Part shown: one piece after another, positions 1 through 5,605 of the stretch
How the letters are laid out: every line of letters starts with the position of its first letter
Numbering within the stretch: the stretch's first letter is position 1
IMG/VR virus record: IMGVR_UViG_2548876857_000008
Length of the DNA stretch: 35,745 nt
Source of the DNA: a virus
Taxonomy: Duplodnaviria; Heunggongvirae; Uroviricota; Caudoviricetes
Strand: one strand, 5' to 3'
Position numbers and translations under genes: made by a program
Notes under the pieces: generated by a model
Databases searched by the model: none
What the model was told of the DNA's origin: nothing
The model's input: the letters and a program-made list of their open reading frames with translations, nothing else

Positions 1-19
1 TACGACCTCGTTTCATTAA

Positions 20-400
20 TCACTTCCGGGGTGATTTTACTGCTTCAGGTTCATCAATGATAGAGAATAATGGGAGCTGTCGGCGGGCGCTTTCAGAACG
101 CTGGATCTTTTTCACCACTTTGTAGATCCACTGCAAAGTCAGGTTGTACTTCTTCGCCAGTTCGCGGTAGTTGCGTCCATCACACTCCTGCCAGATTTTA
201 TAGTCCCGCGCCGATGTCATGAAGACCATGCCTTTGGGCAGGTAAATGGTTTGTCCGCCCCATGCCTGCATCATGTGATTAGCCACAGCGACGGCAATCT
301 GTTCAGCGATATCATCTTCCATTCCAACCATTTCTTTCAATGTGTTTGCGACGTGGTGCGCAAGGTCAGCAAAGATTTCTGGCTGTTGCGGTTCTTTCAT
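20..400 (-). CDS. mor: Mor/C-family transcriptional activator (middle operon regulator-like)
   Basis: Conserved Mor-like blocks GGQTIYLPKG and IWQECDGRNYRELAKKYNLTLQWIYKVVKK. ATG at 400 overlaps the upstream stop (ATGA) and follows a GGGAGGGG ribosome-binding site; the ORF-track start at 427 has none. Confidence 0.8.
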   Translation of the reverse strand: MKEPQQPEIFADLAHHVANTLKEMVGMEDDIAEQIAVAVANHMMQAWGGQTIYLPKGMVFMTSARDYKIWQECDGRNYRELAKKYNLTLQWIYKVVKKIQRSESARRQLPLFSIIDEPEAVKSPRK

Positions 401-801
401 CTTCCCCTCCCGACACGTGCCAGCCATTTTTTCAGTTGTTCAATCACCTGGCTGGCCTGCTGATTGTTAAGCCACTCCAGCCGGGCGACGCCTGTCTGGC
501 GTTGTACGAACTTATTTAACGCCGACAAACTGCCATCTCTGACCGTACCGCTGGAAGTCAGTTCCTGCCATAACGCGCGGATCATCGCAGACTGCTTATC
601 ATAGGAAGGAGGCTCTTTAGATGTGACTTTGAAGCCCTGTTTTTTCATCACAGCGAAAGCCTTAGCCAGTTGTGAGTCGCTCATTACCCGTAACGATTCA
701 CTGCCGCAGTGTGTTTTAAGTAATTGTCGATACGTAGCCTCATCCAGTCGCAGCTCTCGCCGGGCAACATGGATAACCCGCAATAATTGTGCTCTGTTCA
801 T
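397..801 (-). CDS. gemA: GemA / Mu gp16-like early regulatory protein
   Basis: 134 aa directly upstream of Mor, as in Mu. Basic N-terminus (MNRAQLLRVIHVARRELRLDEATYRQLL) resembles the gp16/GemA family. GGAGG precedes the ATG at 801. Confidence 0.6.
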   Translation of the reverse strand: MNRAQLLRVIHVARRELRLDEATYRQLLKTHCGSESLRVMSDSQLAKAFAVMKKQGFKVTSKEPPSYDKQSAMIRALWQELTSSGTVRDGSLSALNKFVQRQTGVARLEWLNNQQASQVIEQLKKWLARVGRGR

Positions 802-1603: not shown

Positions 1604-2221
1604 TCACACCCCCGCAATATTCAGCACGACAGGCTGGTATTTATCGCTATCACCGACACGCTGATAAACCCGCACGTAACTTGTTGAGTTCACCACCTGC
1701 ACCGACTCGCCAATGGCCTCCATTGCCTTCAGCCAGCGTGGGTCGGTAATTTCATAGCGGCGCAGCGCCAGTACGCGCCCGGTGGAGATGTTGCCCTCTT
1801 TATCTTCTGCGAATGCTTTCTCCACGATGACCTTCAGCTCTGGCGTGGCCTGTGCCGTCCACTCATGCAGGCACTCATCAATCAAGTTACGGGCGGCTTG
1901 TAACCGTTCATCAAAGGCGATGTTTTCGGCAATCTGGCGCTGGATCTTGTAGCGACCATCAAATGAATGCAGGGTGATGTTGCCTTTCTTGCCTCCGGGG
2001 CGGGCATCATATTGTTCAACGGACAAATCAATAAACGCCTGTATATCGCCAAAACAGCGGTTTTTAAACTCAAGTAATTCAGCATTCATTTTCATTGCGT
2101 CGGCGACGATCTCCTTTACCAGCGCATCGCGTGCGCGGTCAATGGGCTTGATCATAGACTCGGGAACCAGACAACCTTTGGCGTCCTGCCAGTAACCTGC
2201 GGGGATAGTTTTTTCAGTCAT
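1604..2221 (-). CDS. hypothetical early protein (possibly DUF3164-like, as found in Mu-like phages)
   Basis: 205-aa ORF with ATG at 2221 and an upstream GGAG. Family assignment is from memory only. Confidence 0.55.
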   Translation of the reverse strand: MTEKTIPAGYWQDAKGCLVPESMIKPIDRARDALVKEIVADAMKMNAELLEFKNRCFGDIQAFIDLSVEQYDARPGGKKGNITLHSFDGRYKIQRQIAENIAFDERLQAARNLIDECLHEWTAQATPELKVIVEKAFAEDKEGNISTGRVLALRRYEITDPRWLKAMEAIGESVQVVNSTSYVRVYQRVGDSDKYQPVVLNIAGV

Positions 2222-2292
2222 AAAATAGTCTCCAGGGTGATTTCAGGGTGTGCGAAGCCTGCCGGGTTGACGGCATTTTTCTGCGACCTGAA

Positions 2293-2388
2293 TTAATTAA
2301 ATAAGGCTATGAATATAAAAATCAGTGTAGTTATAGCGCTGGCCCATAATACAAAACGGTCAGCCAGCGATATCTTGCGGTATTGCAT
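2293..2388 (-). CDS. candidate small hydrophobic peptide (31 aa) downstream of B
   Basis: Hand-translated MQYRKISLADRFVLWASAITTLIFIFIALFN. ATG at 2388-2386 preceded by GGAAAGGA; TAA at 2295-2293. Below the ORF-track size cut-off. Confidence 0.3.
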   Translation of the reverse strand: MQYRKISLADRFVLWASAITTLIFIFIALFN

Positions 2389-2423
2389 CACGTCCTTTCC
2401 GGTTAATTTGTGAAATACCATTT

Positions 2424-3548
2424 TCACACTCCTTTAATCACATCCGCATTCACCACCGGCACGCCGATATCAGCGGCCAGATTCATTGCGGCGATAACCA
2501 GATTCCCCAGCGCCAGCGGATAAAGCAGACTGACGTCACCGCGTCGGGATGAATTACATAATCGGGCGCGGATAGCATCGGCGGTGCTATCATCCAGCAC
2601 CTCGGAAACACCTTTCCCGGTACGCTGAAATTTGAACGCCAGAAACGCTTCCAGATAGTTATCCAGCGGCAGCAGTTCGACGACCTCGCAGCGCTGTACC
2701 ACTTCGCGCACCTCCTGATTACGTTCAGAAAGTTTCAGCTTTAGCTCCGGCTGGCCAATCAACACCACCGACAGCAGTTTTTTAAAGCCGTCCTCCAGCT
2801 CAAAGAACCGCTTCAAATGCTTGAGCGTCGGCACCGGTAGCGAGTGCGCCTCTTCAATAACCAGACAATGTGAGAACCCGGCGCGGGCCGACTCTTTCAG
2901 CACCCGGTGCAACTGGCGGTAACGGGCCTCCTGCGAGCGTTTGACGTTCTCCAGCGGTGCGATGGTGTTGATGATGGCCTCGGCAATCGACGCCGCTTTC
3001 AGAGTTTTGCCTTTGGCGTCGTTGTCTTCCATCGCAATGATGTACGGTTCGATGAGGATAACTGGCGCGTTTTCACGGTTGATGCGATCAGCCAGGTCAC
3101 GGCGTAGCGTGGTTTTCCCTGCGCCGGATTCGCCAACTACGGCGATAAATCCGCCATGTCGCGCGGTCTGATACAGTGCTTCACGCACGTAGCGGATATC
3201 TGGCGTGGTGAACACGTCGTCCGCACTCTGCATAACCTCATCGGCGAACGGGTCGCGGAACAACCCAAAATGCTTCTTCGCCGCTGGATTTAATACCTGT
3301 TTTGCCAGTAACATATTTTCGTCCTCACTGGATGATGTACCGGTGCAGGCGGTGGCCGCCGTCTGCGCCTCCTTCAGTTCAATACCTTTTTCTGCAAAAA
3401 ATGTGCTGATGCGCTCCCGTAGTTCTTCTGTTTTCGGCCACAGGCCGTGATTAACCATCTGCGCGATAACCGCTGCGGAAACTCCGGTAGCCTGTGCTAC
3501 TGCTGCCTGAGTGATGCCACGCTGGCGCAACTGTTGTTTAATCTGCAT
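2424..3548 (-). CDS. MuB-like transposition ATPase (AAA+ target-DNA activator)
   Basis: N-terminal helix-turn-helix (GITQAAVAQATGVSAAVIAQ) and Walker A VVGESGAGKTT. Immediately downstream of the transposase, as in Mu. AGGGGGAG precedes the ATG at 3548. Confidence 0.85.
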   Translation of the reverse strand: MQIKQQLRQRGITQAAVAQATGVSAAVIAQMVNHGLWPKTEELRERISTFFAEKGIELKEAQTAATACTGTSSSEDENMLLAKQVLNPAAKKHFGLFRDPFADEVMQSADDVFTTPDIRYVREALYQTARHGGFIAVVGESGAGKTTLRRDLADRINRENAPVILIEPYIIAMEDNDAKGKTLKAASIAEAIINTIAPLENVKRSQEARYRQLHRVLKESARAGFSHCLVIEEAHSLPVPTLKHLKRFFELEDGFKKLLSVVLIGQPELKLKLSERNQEVREVVQRCEVVELLPLDNYLEAFLAFKFQRTGKGVSEVLDDSTADAIRARLCNSSRRGDVSLLYPLALGNLVIAAMNLAADIGVPVVNADVIKGV

Positions 3549-3557
3549 AACTCCCCC

Positions 3558-5303
3558 TTAACCGCCGACTACGTTCAGTTGCACTCGGGCGGTAAGCTGC
3601 TGCGCGGCGGCGTCCAGTTCTTCTTCCGCCACGCCTTCTGGCCAGCGTTTCACCAGTTCCTGATACAGTGCGACGTTCCATTCCGGCAACCGTGCTTTCA
3701 GCGCCTTCGCCGCCTCGACGTGAGTCAGACGCCGGGCTTCAACGCGTGGAGCGCGTACCGGGGAATCCTGACCACGACGCGGCAGGAACGCGGGCAGTTC
3801 GCTGTCGGTGATGGGTTTATACGGGTCAAGCCTGCCGCCGAACGGCAGCGCCTTCGCTTTACGCGCCGCAGCCGCGTCCGTCTCGTTATCTGTTCCGGTA
3901 ACAATCTGCTCAATCTGTTTAGCCGCAGTCTGCGCGGGTGTATCGGCGTGGCGCTTGTGATTCTGGCCCAGCACCGCCGCGCCTTCGGCAAAGCCGTATT
4001 CGTCCTTGCGGACTTCCTCCACCAGGTGAAAATACTCGTGGCCATCGTCACCGATGAGCACTACCTGCGCGGCATCGCTGCGCCACGGATTGCGGGTGAT
4101 CATCAGTTTTTCACCCACCATCACATCTGGCACGGTGGAGACGTCGTATTCCGTACCCTGAAACGACACGCGCAGCTTCGGCGTTATCTTGCGGCTTTCC
4201 GGCGCGGCAACAGCCAGTTCGCGGCAGACCTCCACCGATGGCGCTTTGATAAGCTGCTGCGCGGTGATGGTCATCCAGACGTTACTACGCGACTTGCCGT
4301 GGCGGGTGTGAATCGCGGTGGCGTTGAAGTGCTGCCGCCACAGGCGCGCTTTGGCGTTCAGTTCCTCCAGGCTGTGAACCGGCTGGAACTTCAGCCCCGG
4401 TTCAAAGCGGCGTTCGATAATGTCGCGCGCCTTTTCCACCTGCCCGGTGGCGCGGGCGTTGTGGGCTTTATGCGCCACCACGTCAATGCCCAGCGAACGA
4501 CAGAGGTTCTTCGTCATAGCGGCGGTGTTGGCCGAGCCGGGGTCGAGATACAACATATGCGGCACGCCGTGGAGCACATCCGCGCCGCCGCGCTCCTGCA
4601 TGGCATTGATGAGAACGGAACAGAGATTTTCGCCAGACTCCGCCCCCATCACGTATTCAACGTAGATCCAGCCGCTGGTATGGTCGGTCAGTTCATAGCT
4701 CCATACCCGGTCACTGGCGATACGTTGCAGGTTCTTCGGCTTGTTTTTGTAGAACGTCGCGCTGTCCATCACCTGTAACCCGCGCTGGCCGTTGCTGAGG
4801 TAGTACAGCGTGCAGAGCGAGGCGTCGATTTCCCAGACGTGATTGGGGTGCAGACTGGCAAGCTCCGTCACTGGCGCGGGCTGGCTGAGTTGATCCGGGT
4901 GCAGGCCGTAGCCACGCAGCGCCCGGATGATGGTGCTTTCTGACAATGGCACCCACTCGCCGCTTTCCTCATCCAGCCGCCCGGCGTCAATCTCGCCGTT
5001 GGCGCGTAACATCTCCACGGCATCAATGACGGAATACAGGCGCTTGCCGTTCTTACGGGTGGCTTCCGTCAGCGTAGCGGAAATCATCACCGCCTCATCG
5101 CGGGTCAGCGCGGTTTTTCCGGCGTCGGTGCGGCGCTTGCGTTTATCGGTCACGGCAACCTCCTTTATTCTGCGTAACAGCGTGGCGCGGGACAGGCCAA
5201 GTTCCGCGCAGGCGGCAGTGTAGATTGCGCCGCGTGCGCCATGCCCGGCCTGCCGTGCAGCCTGAGCAACAGCAACTAAGCGTTCGGTCATGACGGCGCT
5301 CAT
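3558..5303 (-). CDS. MuA-like DDE transposase (rve/integrase-core superfamily)
   Basis: N-terminal helix-turn-helix, then candidate D-D-E residues (HVWEIDAS, LYLDPGSANT, ATGQVEKARD; D to E spacing 36 aa). Lies between Ner and B. ATG at 5303 has a GGAAGG site 9 nt upstream; the track start at 5312 has zero spacing. Confidence 0.8.
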   Translation of the reverse strand: MSAVMTERLVAVAQAARQAGHGARGAIYTAACAELGLSRATLLRRIKEVAVTDKRKRRTDAGKTALTRDEAVMISATLTEATRKNGKRLYSVIDAVEMLRANGEIDAGRLDEESGEWVPLSESTIIRALRGYGLHPDQLSQPAPVTELASLHPNHVWEIDASLCTLYYLSNGQRGLQVMDSATFYKNKPKNLQRIASDRVWSYELTDHTSGWIYVEYVMGAESGENLCSVLINAMQERGGADVLHGVPHMLYLDPGSANTAAMTKNLCRSLGIDVVAHKAHNARATGQVEKARDIIERRFEPGLKFQPVHSLEELNAKARLWRQHFNATAIHTRHGKSRSNVWMTITAQQLIKAPSVEVCRELAVAAPESRKITPKLRVSFQGTEYDVSTVPDVMVGEKLMITRNPWRSDAAQVVLIGDDGHEYFHLVEEVRKDEYGFAEGAAVLGQNHKRHADTPAQTAAKQIEQIVTGTDNETDAAAARKAKALPFGGRLDPYKPITDSELPAFLPRRGQDSPVRAPRVEARRLTHVEAAKALKARLPEWNVALYQELVKRWPEGVAEEELDAAAQQLTARVQLNVVGG

Positions 5304-5305
5304 GG

Positions 5306-5605
5306 TCAGCATCCTTCCGGTAGTTCGGGAACTAACATCCAGTGGGTGATCTGTTTTGCCGGGTACGTTTCACTGGTGCAGTGAAACTCGCCATCAATAT
5401 AGTTAGCGGTTTCCACGCCGTAGCCATCACAGACCAGCACAAGGTCATAGTCACCAGGCAGTTGTGCGTCAGTGGCTATCCACGGTGAGGCCAGCGCATC
5501 CTTAAAAGCGACTCTCAGCAGTCGGCCACCGAGGATATCGGCGTTAAAGTGGTAACTCGGCTCCTGCGGAGCCTTAGCGAAATCAATAACTAATGTGCGG
5601 ATCAT
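5306..5605 (-). CDS. hypothetical early protein
   Basis: 99 aa; its ATG at 5605 overlaps the upstream stop (ATGA). Confidence 0.5.
   Translation of the reverse strand: MIRTLVIDFAKAPQEPSYHFNADILGGRLLRVAFKDALASPWIATDAQLPGDYDLVLVCDGYGVETANYIDGEFHCTSETYPAKQITHWMLVPELPEGC

Follow-up and report, generated by a model that had tools for sequence, protein, structure and literature searches.

Genomic Setting of the Peptide Gene

Analysis of a 35,745-nt stretch of DNA (IMG/VR record IMGVR_UViG_2548876857_000008; hereafter the window) showed an E. coli prophage of the transposable (Mu-like), BcepMu/B3-like type, whose early operon occupies the minus strand. A Ner-like gene and then four regulatory-type or functionally unassigned genes lie upstream of the transposase A gene (3558–5312), all on the minus strand. 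Gene B (2424–3548, minus strand) encodes an ExeA/AAA_22-type AAA+ DNA transposition ATPase of 374 aa. It is followed on the same strand by the small peptide gene described here (2293–2421), a non-coding spacer of 71 nt (2222–2292), and a gene of the DUF3164 family (1604–2221; 205 aa). Downstream of DUF3164, the operon continues with three small genes, GemA, and Mor, also on the minus strand.

Of 5,426 complete E. coli genomes, only 2 contained near-identical prophage DNA. Among isolated phages, BcepMu, phiE255, and B3 are the closest, together with enterobacterial relatives including KP12 and PhiKM, with DNA identities of 65–75%. Mor is the last early gene, and its neighbor in the two complete E. 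coli genomes is the host gene ybjC (window 1–430; L001 3430–4251). Therefore, the early operon points to the end of the prophage; BcepMu has this arrangement, whereas Mu does not. In E. coli A35 (L001 6275–7195), B is annotated as a frameshifted pseudogene, and the peptide gene and the spacer are identical to those of the window.

Gene Boundaries and Start Codon

A sequence-only reading of the window had proposed an unannotated, Kil-like ORF of 31 codons at 2293–2388. Its minus-strand ATG (2388–2386), the peptide MQYRKISLADRFVLWASAITTLIFIFIALFN, and the TAA stop (2295–2293) were all found as claimed. The reading frame is present, but the 5′ end had been set too short: the conserved gene has 42 codons and the TAA stop, extends from 2421 to 2293 on the minus strand, and encodes MVFHKLTGKDVMQYRKISLADRFVLWASAITTLIFIFIALFN, as judged from the ORF, its orthologues, dN/dS, and third-position bias. 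The frame is open upstream of the internal ATG (2293–2427 in the ORF list). With the start at 2421, the supposed 200-bp gap (2222–2423) shrinks to a 2-nt junction and the 71-nt spacer. Nor had this been the only non-coupled gap of the operon, as another one of 54 nt is located at 802–855.

The ATG at 2421–2419 begins 2 nt past the TGA of B (2426–2424), and a Shine–Dalgarno sequence, AAGGAG (2429–2434, minus strand), lies within the last codons of B, 7 nt 5′ of this ATG. Judged by sequence, a stop codon of B 2 nt before the ATG together with a Shine–Dalgarno sequence inside B is the layout of translational coupling. A purine-rich Shine–Dalgarno sequence was also present upstream of the conserved ATG in all orthologues, including those in which a 72-aa gene is inserted. 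A GTG start at 2427 that would overlap the stop of B was rejected, because this codon reads ATA in L013 and L100. No promoter-like site was found on either strand between 1500 and 3700. Most simply, therefore, the peptide gene would be part of the early transcript and translated in coupling with B, as its layout suggests.

The start codon at 2421 was favored over the internal ATG (M12) by comparison of the orthologous sequences. The earlier reading had paired M12 with GGAAAGGA as a ribosome-binding site (2386–2400 on the minus strand for the two elements). The string GGAAAGGA is indeed present at 2400–2393, but as a ribosome-binding site it is lost in the orthologues, where it reads GGCAAGGA, GGAAAAGA, or GGTAAAGA, all by synonymous changes; in L098, the internal Shine–Dalgarno sequence has decayed to GGTAAAGATGTTATG. 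Could the 31-codon form nevertheless be what the gene truly or mainly produces, or an additional isoform that arises by internal initiation? M12 is invariant across the family, it follows a reasonable Shine–Dalgarno sequence in the window, and one gene caller chose it as the start (31 aa) in one assembly. That 31-aa call is the choice of the caller, since the upstream ATG and the frame are intact in the same contig. Moreover, the 11 codons upstream of M12 are kept at the amino-acid level with mostly synonymous changes, the invariant LTG.DV motif sits within them, and the internal Shine–Dalgarno sequence decays as described. We therefore give a product starting at 2388 little chance.

The statement that the ORF is unannotated holds for two RefSeq complete E. 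coli genomes carrying the prophage, in both of which the PGAP annotation is empty between B and DUF3164. It does not hold elsewhere: the exact 42-aa product has been deposited as a "hypothetical protein" of E. coli CHS 77 and is seen on 479 contigs, and the 42-aa form is predicted by other gene callers. It is common for small phage proteins to be missed or shortened by annotation, and both occurred here, through the PGAP omission and through the wrong start taken from a sequence-only reading.

Conservation of the Reading Frame

Orthologues with the frame kept at the same place were identified in approximately ten diverged lineages from E. coli, Salmonella, Lelliottia, and Limnobaculum. Their products are 42–45 aa in length, with additional variants of 53 aa and 100–102 aa. 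Peptide identity to the window was 74% in Lelliottia and 88% and 48% in two IMG/VR contigs. Further orthologues directly after B were found in Salmonella and additional assemblies, and more distant forms of 53 and 100 aa were also found. The two E. coli genomes and several contigs were 100% identical over the ORF and the spacer and were uninformative on selection.

The reading frame is under strong purifying selection. The dN/dS ratio was 0.074 between the window and L097 and 0.066 between the window and L013. Differences at codon positions 1/2/3 numbered 4/2/15, 7/4/21, and 20/11/26 in three comparisons (p about 2–4e-4 for the first two). The same pattern was observed in the segment that the 31-codon model leaves out: the 11 codons before the internal ATG differed from L098 at 2/1/8 sites (8 of 11 at third positions), and over the first 16 codons, 10 of the 11 codons changed relative to L098 were synonymous. 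All other frames contained stops or had lost their starts in orthologues. An antisense ORF at 2309–2413 on the plus strand (34 aa) was rejected in this way, as its ATG is lost or stops are gained in orthologues.

Three contigs carry a gene of 72 aa between B and the peptide gene. In these contigs, the peptide gene retains its own ATG and a strong Shine–Dalgarno sequence (TGGAGGAAAGG) and has a new N-terminus, MP[AV]SH[FY]KLTG.... The inserted gene (MKDNPYTEHLKMAR...; L102–L104, 2793–3011) has no hydrophobic stretch and overlaps the new start of the peptide gene by 11 nt.

An ORF of this length is weak evidence in itself, since an ATG-initiated ORF of at least 42 codons occurred in about 5% of shuffles of the stretch; the case for a gene rests on conservation. 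A chance ORF in a non-coding spacer from which no protein is made would be compatible with this frequency, with the low GC content (37%), and with the empty PGAP annotation in the two complete E. coli genomes. It is at odds with the frame, length, start, and Shine–Dalgarno sequence that are kept in about ten diverged lineages, with a dN/dS of approximately 0.07 accompanied by third-position bias, with the lack of conservation in the remaining five frames, and with a start rebuilt after an upstream insertion. A frame not kept in close relatives had been named beforehand as the observation that would speak against the gene, and the opposite was observed. Among the rival explanations considered in this study, a chance ORF is the only one that these sequence comparisons contradict to the point of exclusion; it is extremely improbable, and the 42-codon ORF is almost certainly a real protein-coding gene.

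Predicted Membrane Helix and Conserved Motif

Prediction supported the proposal that the product is a single-pass membrane peptide. Alignments and charge indicated that codons 1–22 (2356–2421, minus strand) encode a predicted cytoplasmic N-terminal segment with a net charge of +3, and codons 23–41 (2299–2355, minus strand) encode a predicted C-terminal hydrophobic transmembrane helix, FVLWASAITTLIFIFIALF, which is followed by N42. The Kyte–Doolittle mean over the 19 residues 23–41 was 2.48. AlphaFold2, run with the family alignment, returned one helix over residues 8–41 with a pLDDT of 88–93 in the hydrophobic part. These predictions make it likely that the peptide is membrane-anchored.

The positive-inside rule and the long Limnobaculum variants point to a tail anchor with a predicted N-in topology. 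The 56-aa N-terminal extension of the 100–102-aa variants shows no hydrophobic signal-like stretch by eye, which fits this orientation. The peptide ends in ...FIALFN, and in members of 42–44 aa the helix is followed by just one residue (N, K, or S); longer variants have short, mostly uncharged C-terminal tails. The long variants P0022 and P0023 of Limnobaculum (L107 4001–4303; 100–102 aa) consist of the 56-aa extension (...NDIPLYLHRP...) fused to the motif and the transmembrane helix. The extension has a weak match to phrog_660. No spacer flanks the gene, which is tightly coupled to both of its neighbors. In Limnobaculum xujianqingii, a 45-aa and a 100-aa family member occur together.

In ten aligned sequences, L6, T7, G8, D10, V11, M12, K16, and D21 were invariant, giving the N-terminal core motif LTG[KD]DVM..K....D. 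W26, S28, I30, and I34 were nearly invariant in the same sequences, and W26, I30, and I34 share one face of the helix. The remaining positions of the hydrophobic segment are freely exchanged for other hydrophobic residues, and in P0004, P0008, and P0009 the transmembrane sequence has been almost wholly replaced while the cytoplasmic motif is unchanged. From a conserved cytoplasmic juxtamembrane motif together with one conserved helix face, we infer binding of a specific partner and not a simple pore. Such conservation would fit a specific partner on the cytoplasmic side of the membrane better than generic damage to the membrane.

The same data bear on the possibility that the peptide is a membrane-damaging small toxin of the type I toxin or holin kind, whose helix would oligomerize and depolarize or permeabilize the inner membrane, with the N-terminus being secondary. 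Like the small membrane toxins of type I systems, the peptide is small and hydrophobic with one predicted transmembrane helix, and its gene lies in the region that kills the host in Mu (PMC3325207). Against such a toxin, the transmembrane sequence is less conserved than the invariant cytoplasmic motif, as seen in the three members with a replaced helix. The arrangement is also atypical, with a charged N-terminus, the helix at the extreme C-terminus, and no charged C-terminal tail. Most type I toxins have the reverse orientation, and holins also differ. Holins have a charged hydrophilic C-terminal tail past the last helix, where this peptide has only one residue, and they are encoded in the lysis cassette, beside the endolysin in the late operon, whereas the peptide gene is located between B and DUF3164 in the early operon. 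Consensus scans, which can miss weak promoters, gave no sigma-70-like site on either strand between 1500 and 3700 from which an antisense RNA might be transcribed, and no Rfam antitoxin RNA was matched. A membrane-damaging toxin is therefore considered unlikely.

Family Size and Similarity to Known Proteins

The family is small, comprising about ten clusters at 90% identity among 5.8 billion proteins and five representatives at 50% identity among 1.84 billion. All known hosts of its members belong to the Enterobacterales, and the family is clearly dispensable for Mu-like phages in general.

Searches against Pfam, NCBIfam, PADLOC, and PDB gave no homology-based support for a function. No Pfam-A family scored above the gathering score (the sole match, PT-TG, reached 13.7 bits with a cut-off of 23.5), and NCBIfam and PDB sequence searches returned no usable match for the peptide. 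None of eight family members matched a PADLOC-DB defense model at E values up to 10. Likewise, megablast against phage records and tblastn with the peptide and P0004 against 50,697 phage records gave no match. The only library family matched repeatedly was phrog_11981, an unannotated profile of 49 positions, with E values of 0.0019, 0.0004, 0.027, and 0.0043 for four members; these matches are consistent but marginal. Their alignments cover the N-terminal motif and extend, in the case of P0004, over most of the length.

Two small proteins resembled the family and were not accepted as members. Mu gp20 (39 aa, MYRKFS...; L099 9831–9950) looks tail-anchored like the peptide, with a hydrophobic C-terminal half, MYRKFSDECFGPSTLINAIKVIALVVLITISAVVYLSVC, and a YRK[FI]S string. 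Homology was rejected, as hhalign gave a probability of 1.9% over 5 aligned columns and the gp20 gene occupies a different genome position, just before gene C. P0010 (62 aa; L109 5001–5189) shares the 11-residue string ADRAVLWASAI with P0006, but its E value was 0.6 and its genomic context is different, being an unrelated phage with an Sf6-type terminase and an SU10-type portal.

Outside phages, SidA of Caulobacter (29 aa), DidA, and YneA of B. subtilis are very small inner-membrane proteins of DNA-damage or induction programs, as is predicted for the peptide. SidA and DidA are small single-pass membrane proteins that block division through FtsW/I/N (PMC4211646). Together with YneA, also a small membrane inhibitor of division, they suggest a plausible way for the peptide to act, by way of a partner in the membrane (PMC4211646; PMC13396833). 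These proteins are encoded by chromosomal checkpoint genes, whereas the peptide is phage-encoded, and homology between them would not be expected.

The Position after B and Its Relation to Kil

It had been noted that Mu encodes a host-killing protein just downstream of B, and this was confirmed: Mu kil lies directly after B, and relatives carry Kil-family genes in exactly this slot. The B protein was used to fetch 80 related loci, and in most of them B is directly followed by a gene for a protein of 89–113 aa that lacks a strongly hydrophobic segment. These proteins end in a motif resembling the NGCQIIW of Mu Kil, and a chain of weak PHROG matches ties them to it (phrog_2743/6381 to phrog_2041 to phrog_2043). 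The relatives compared were those of phrog_2743/6381/2679 and the linked phrog_2041/2043, together with KP12_290, BcepMu gp07, and B3 ORF10.

By tblastn, 52 of 85 other loci gave a Kil-family hit, whereas the window and all 20 of the fetched peptide-bearing loci gave none. No Kil PHROG was matched by ten early-operon proteins (nine of the window and the gene after the peptide in L098), and no Kil family appeared in a PHROG scan of three peptide orthologues at E values up to 10; Mu Kil and the after-B proteins of relatives do match Kil-linked PHROGs. The peptide and Kil never co-occur in the sampled loci. This mutual exclusion is phylogenetically non-independent and may reflect only one or two replacement events.

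Like Mu Kil (Mup05, 74 aa) and its remote relatives, the peptide gene is the first gene after B, is coupled tightly to B, is small, and is dispensable for the phage group. The term Kil-like is thus apt for position and not for homology. The Kil family has proteins of 74–113 aa with no strongly hydrophobic segment and a GC[RQ]I[IT]W end, whereas the peptide has 42 aa, a predicted C-terminal helix that would make it membrane-bound rather than soluble, and another motif; it matches no Kil PHROG and has no sequence similarity to the Mu Kil family. Lambda Kil, Rac KilR, Qin DicB, and P1 Icd are short early or prophage peptides, as here, and they are soluble, cytoplasmic, and halt host growth. According to PMC3961180, PMC12482147, and PMC11897509, prophage peptide inhibitors of cytokinesis arrest the growth of their host. 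Genes named kil are unrelated to one another (PMC3961180).

The slot after B is variable in general, also holding lipoproteins, other small transmembrane proteins, and unrelated genes, so position alone is weak evidence of function. Over L014–L092, it appears as a gene-replacement hot spot with Kil-family proteins in most loci. About ten Pasteurellaceae loci have lipoproteins of 63–68 aa (e.g., MRKTTLILTAFLLAGC...) in it, and L056 and L086 have other small transmembrane proteins. Where Kil is missing, the slot often carries other envelope-directed small proteins.

The peptide gene is not confined to one arrangement. In L107, the peptide module is 40% identical to that of the window and lies after a B of only 44% identity and beside a DUF3164 gene of 41% identity. 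Since the peptide also follows a 44%-identical B, its association with the position after B is either of long standing or was regained on more than one occasion. In two diverged short variants (L013 and L100), the peptide gene alone is retained between B and Mor. The early regions of L013 (Lelliottia wanjuensis, 2630–4095) and L100 lack DUF3164, the small genes, and GemA and run from A through a 315-aa B and the gene of the 42-aa peptide to Mor. No further in-frame ATG is present upstream of the 315-aa B, and the two peptides differ at 10 of 42 residues.

These arrangements might be taken to indicate an accessory factor of phage transposition or replication, for example one that tethers or regulates B at the membrane. 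The gene is always directly downstream of B or one gene away with a layout of translational coupling, it is retained with A and B where the rest of the region is deleted, and its divergence in L107 is similar to that of B and DUF3164. On the other hand, most phages with a closely related B (72–76% identity) have no such peptide, and we know of no membrane link for MuB-type proteins. Furthermore, Kil as the occupant of the same slot is host-directed (PMC3325207; PMC3961180). A role in support of B is thus regarded as rather improbable.

Proposed Role of the Peptide

The kil gene and the semi-essential region of Mu are lethal to the host and share an early transcript with A and B (PMC3325207), and Mu kil expression leads to spherical cells (PMC3961180). 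The peptide of the window lies in Kil's position and was never found with a Kil-family gene in the sampled loci, and its most likely role is that of a host-directed early effector. In short, this early-operon membrane peptide is probably directed at the host, and it occupies the position of Kil with no homology to it. The complete reading, namely a 42-codon early gene whose tail-anchored product is a host-directed effector and a positional, non-homologous substitute for Kil, is the one we favor, at somewhat less than an even chance. The host-directed role by itself is put forward a little more tentatively still, and a specific inhibitor of morphogenesis or division is a doubtful refinement of it.

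Under the favored reading, the peptide would be made on induction together with A and B from the early (transposase) transcript and would be translated by coupling or re-initiation directly after B. It would then insert in the inner membrane as a tail anchor, with a positively charged segment of about 22 residues staying in the cytoplasm. The conserved cytoplasmic juxtamembrane surface may bind a target at the inner membrane. As a result, growth, morphogenesis, or division would be blocked, or the envelope otherwise altered, during lytic development, an outcome comparable to that of Kil.

The position of the gene within the early operon also bears on another function, that of a superinfection-exclusion or defense peptide, which would keep competing phages out by blocking the entry of their DNA or the function of their receptors. 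Superinfection exclusion is common among small inner-membrane prophage proteins. The small prophage protein DicB protects by an action on inner-membrane receptor proteins (PMC6832061). The peptide gene, however, is inside a repressed early lytic operon and has no promoter-like site of its own, so expression in lysogens is unlikely, and the family had no PADLOC match. We consider an exclusion peptide improbable.

A broader interpretation would be a new class of phage takeover protein, in which a tail-anchored LTG[KD]DVM..K....D peptide captures a host protein and so replaces the soluble Kil, or else couples the B ATPase to the membrane. This is unlikely as it stands. If it were true, the captured host protein could be a morphogenesis or division protein or another membrane-proximal protein, and Kil would have been replaced in a subgroup of enterobacterial Mu-like phages; in either form, host capture or coupling of B, it would amount to a non-homologous functional swap at a fixed genome position.

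The peptide is a newly described addition to the small early proteins of phages, a well-known class, and is not itself surprising. What the comparison adds is the true gene, of 42 aa and with a layout of coupling to B, and a small orphan family with an unusually sharp motif in its predicted cytoplasmic part. Since the peptide occupies the slot of Kil and no sampled locus has both, it makes an inexpensive and well-defined candidate for a new peptide inhibitor of the envelope or of morphogenesis in E. coli and Salmonella, and the locus offers a test case for non-orthologous replacement in the mosaic early regions of phages. If expression of the peptide gives no phenotype, it would be merely another hypothetical phage peptide.

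A Conserved Non-coding Spacer Downstream of the Peptide Gene

The 71-nt spacer between the peptide gene and DUF3164 (2222–2292, minus strand) drew attention by its conservation and predicted fold. Column identity was 96% over five lineages, and the spacer had 4–8 differences in 71 nt, whereas the adjacent ORF had 12–15 in its 38 third codon positions (Fisher p 2e-5 to 3e-3). It is retained where the downstream gene has been swapped (DUF3164 versus a 177-aa gene). By these sequence comparisons, the spacer is a constrained non-coding element, which might act in mRNA processing or stability or serve as a linker at a module boundary.

A stem-loop is predicted at about 2242–2292 (minus strand), with the core TGCCG-N6-CGGCA at 2260–2275. 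The consensus fold has 17 pairs and −18 kcal/mol, and one pair is compensatory (U-A to C-G in L103), although two lineages have a C.A mismatch at the same pair. The Rfam search of the spacer gave no match other than a sub-threshold snoRNA. The core hairpin with its T-run was rejected as a terminator, since it would work on the plus strand only, shuffled sequences are equally rich in such hairpins, and the T-run is not conserved.

The spacer also contains a 20-codon upstream ORF, MPSTRQASHTLKSPWRLFYD (window 2212–2274, minus strand), which ends in a ATGACTGA overlap with the start of DUF3164. It was rejected as a gene, as three lineages have ACG in place of its ATG. A 1-nt deletion in L097 brings the ATG of this upstream ORF in frame with the downstream gene.
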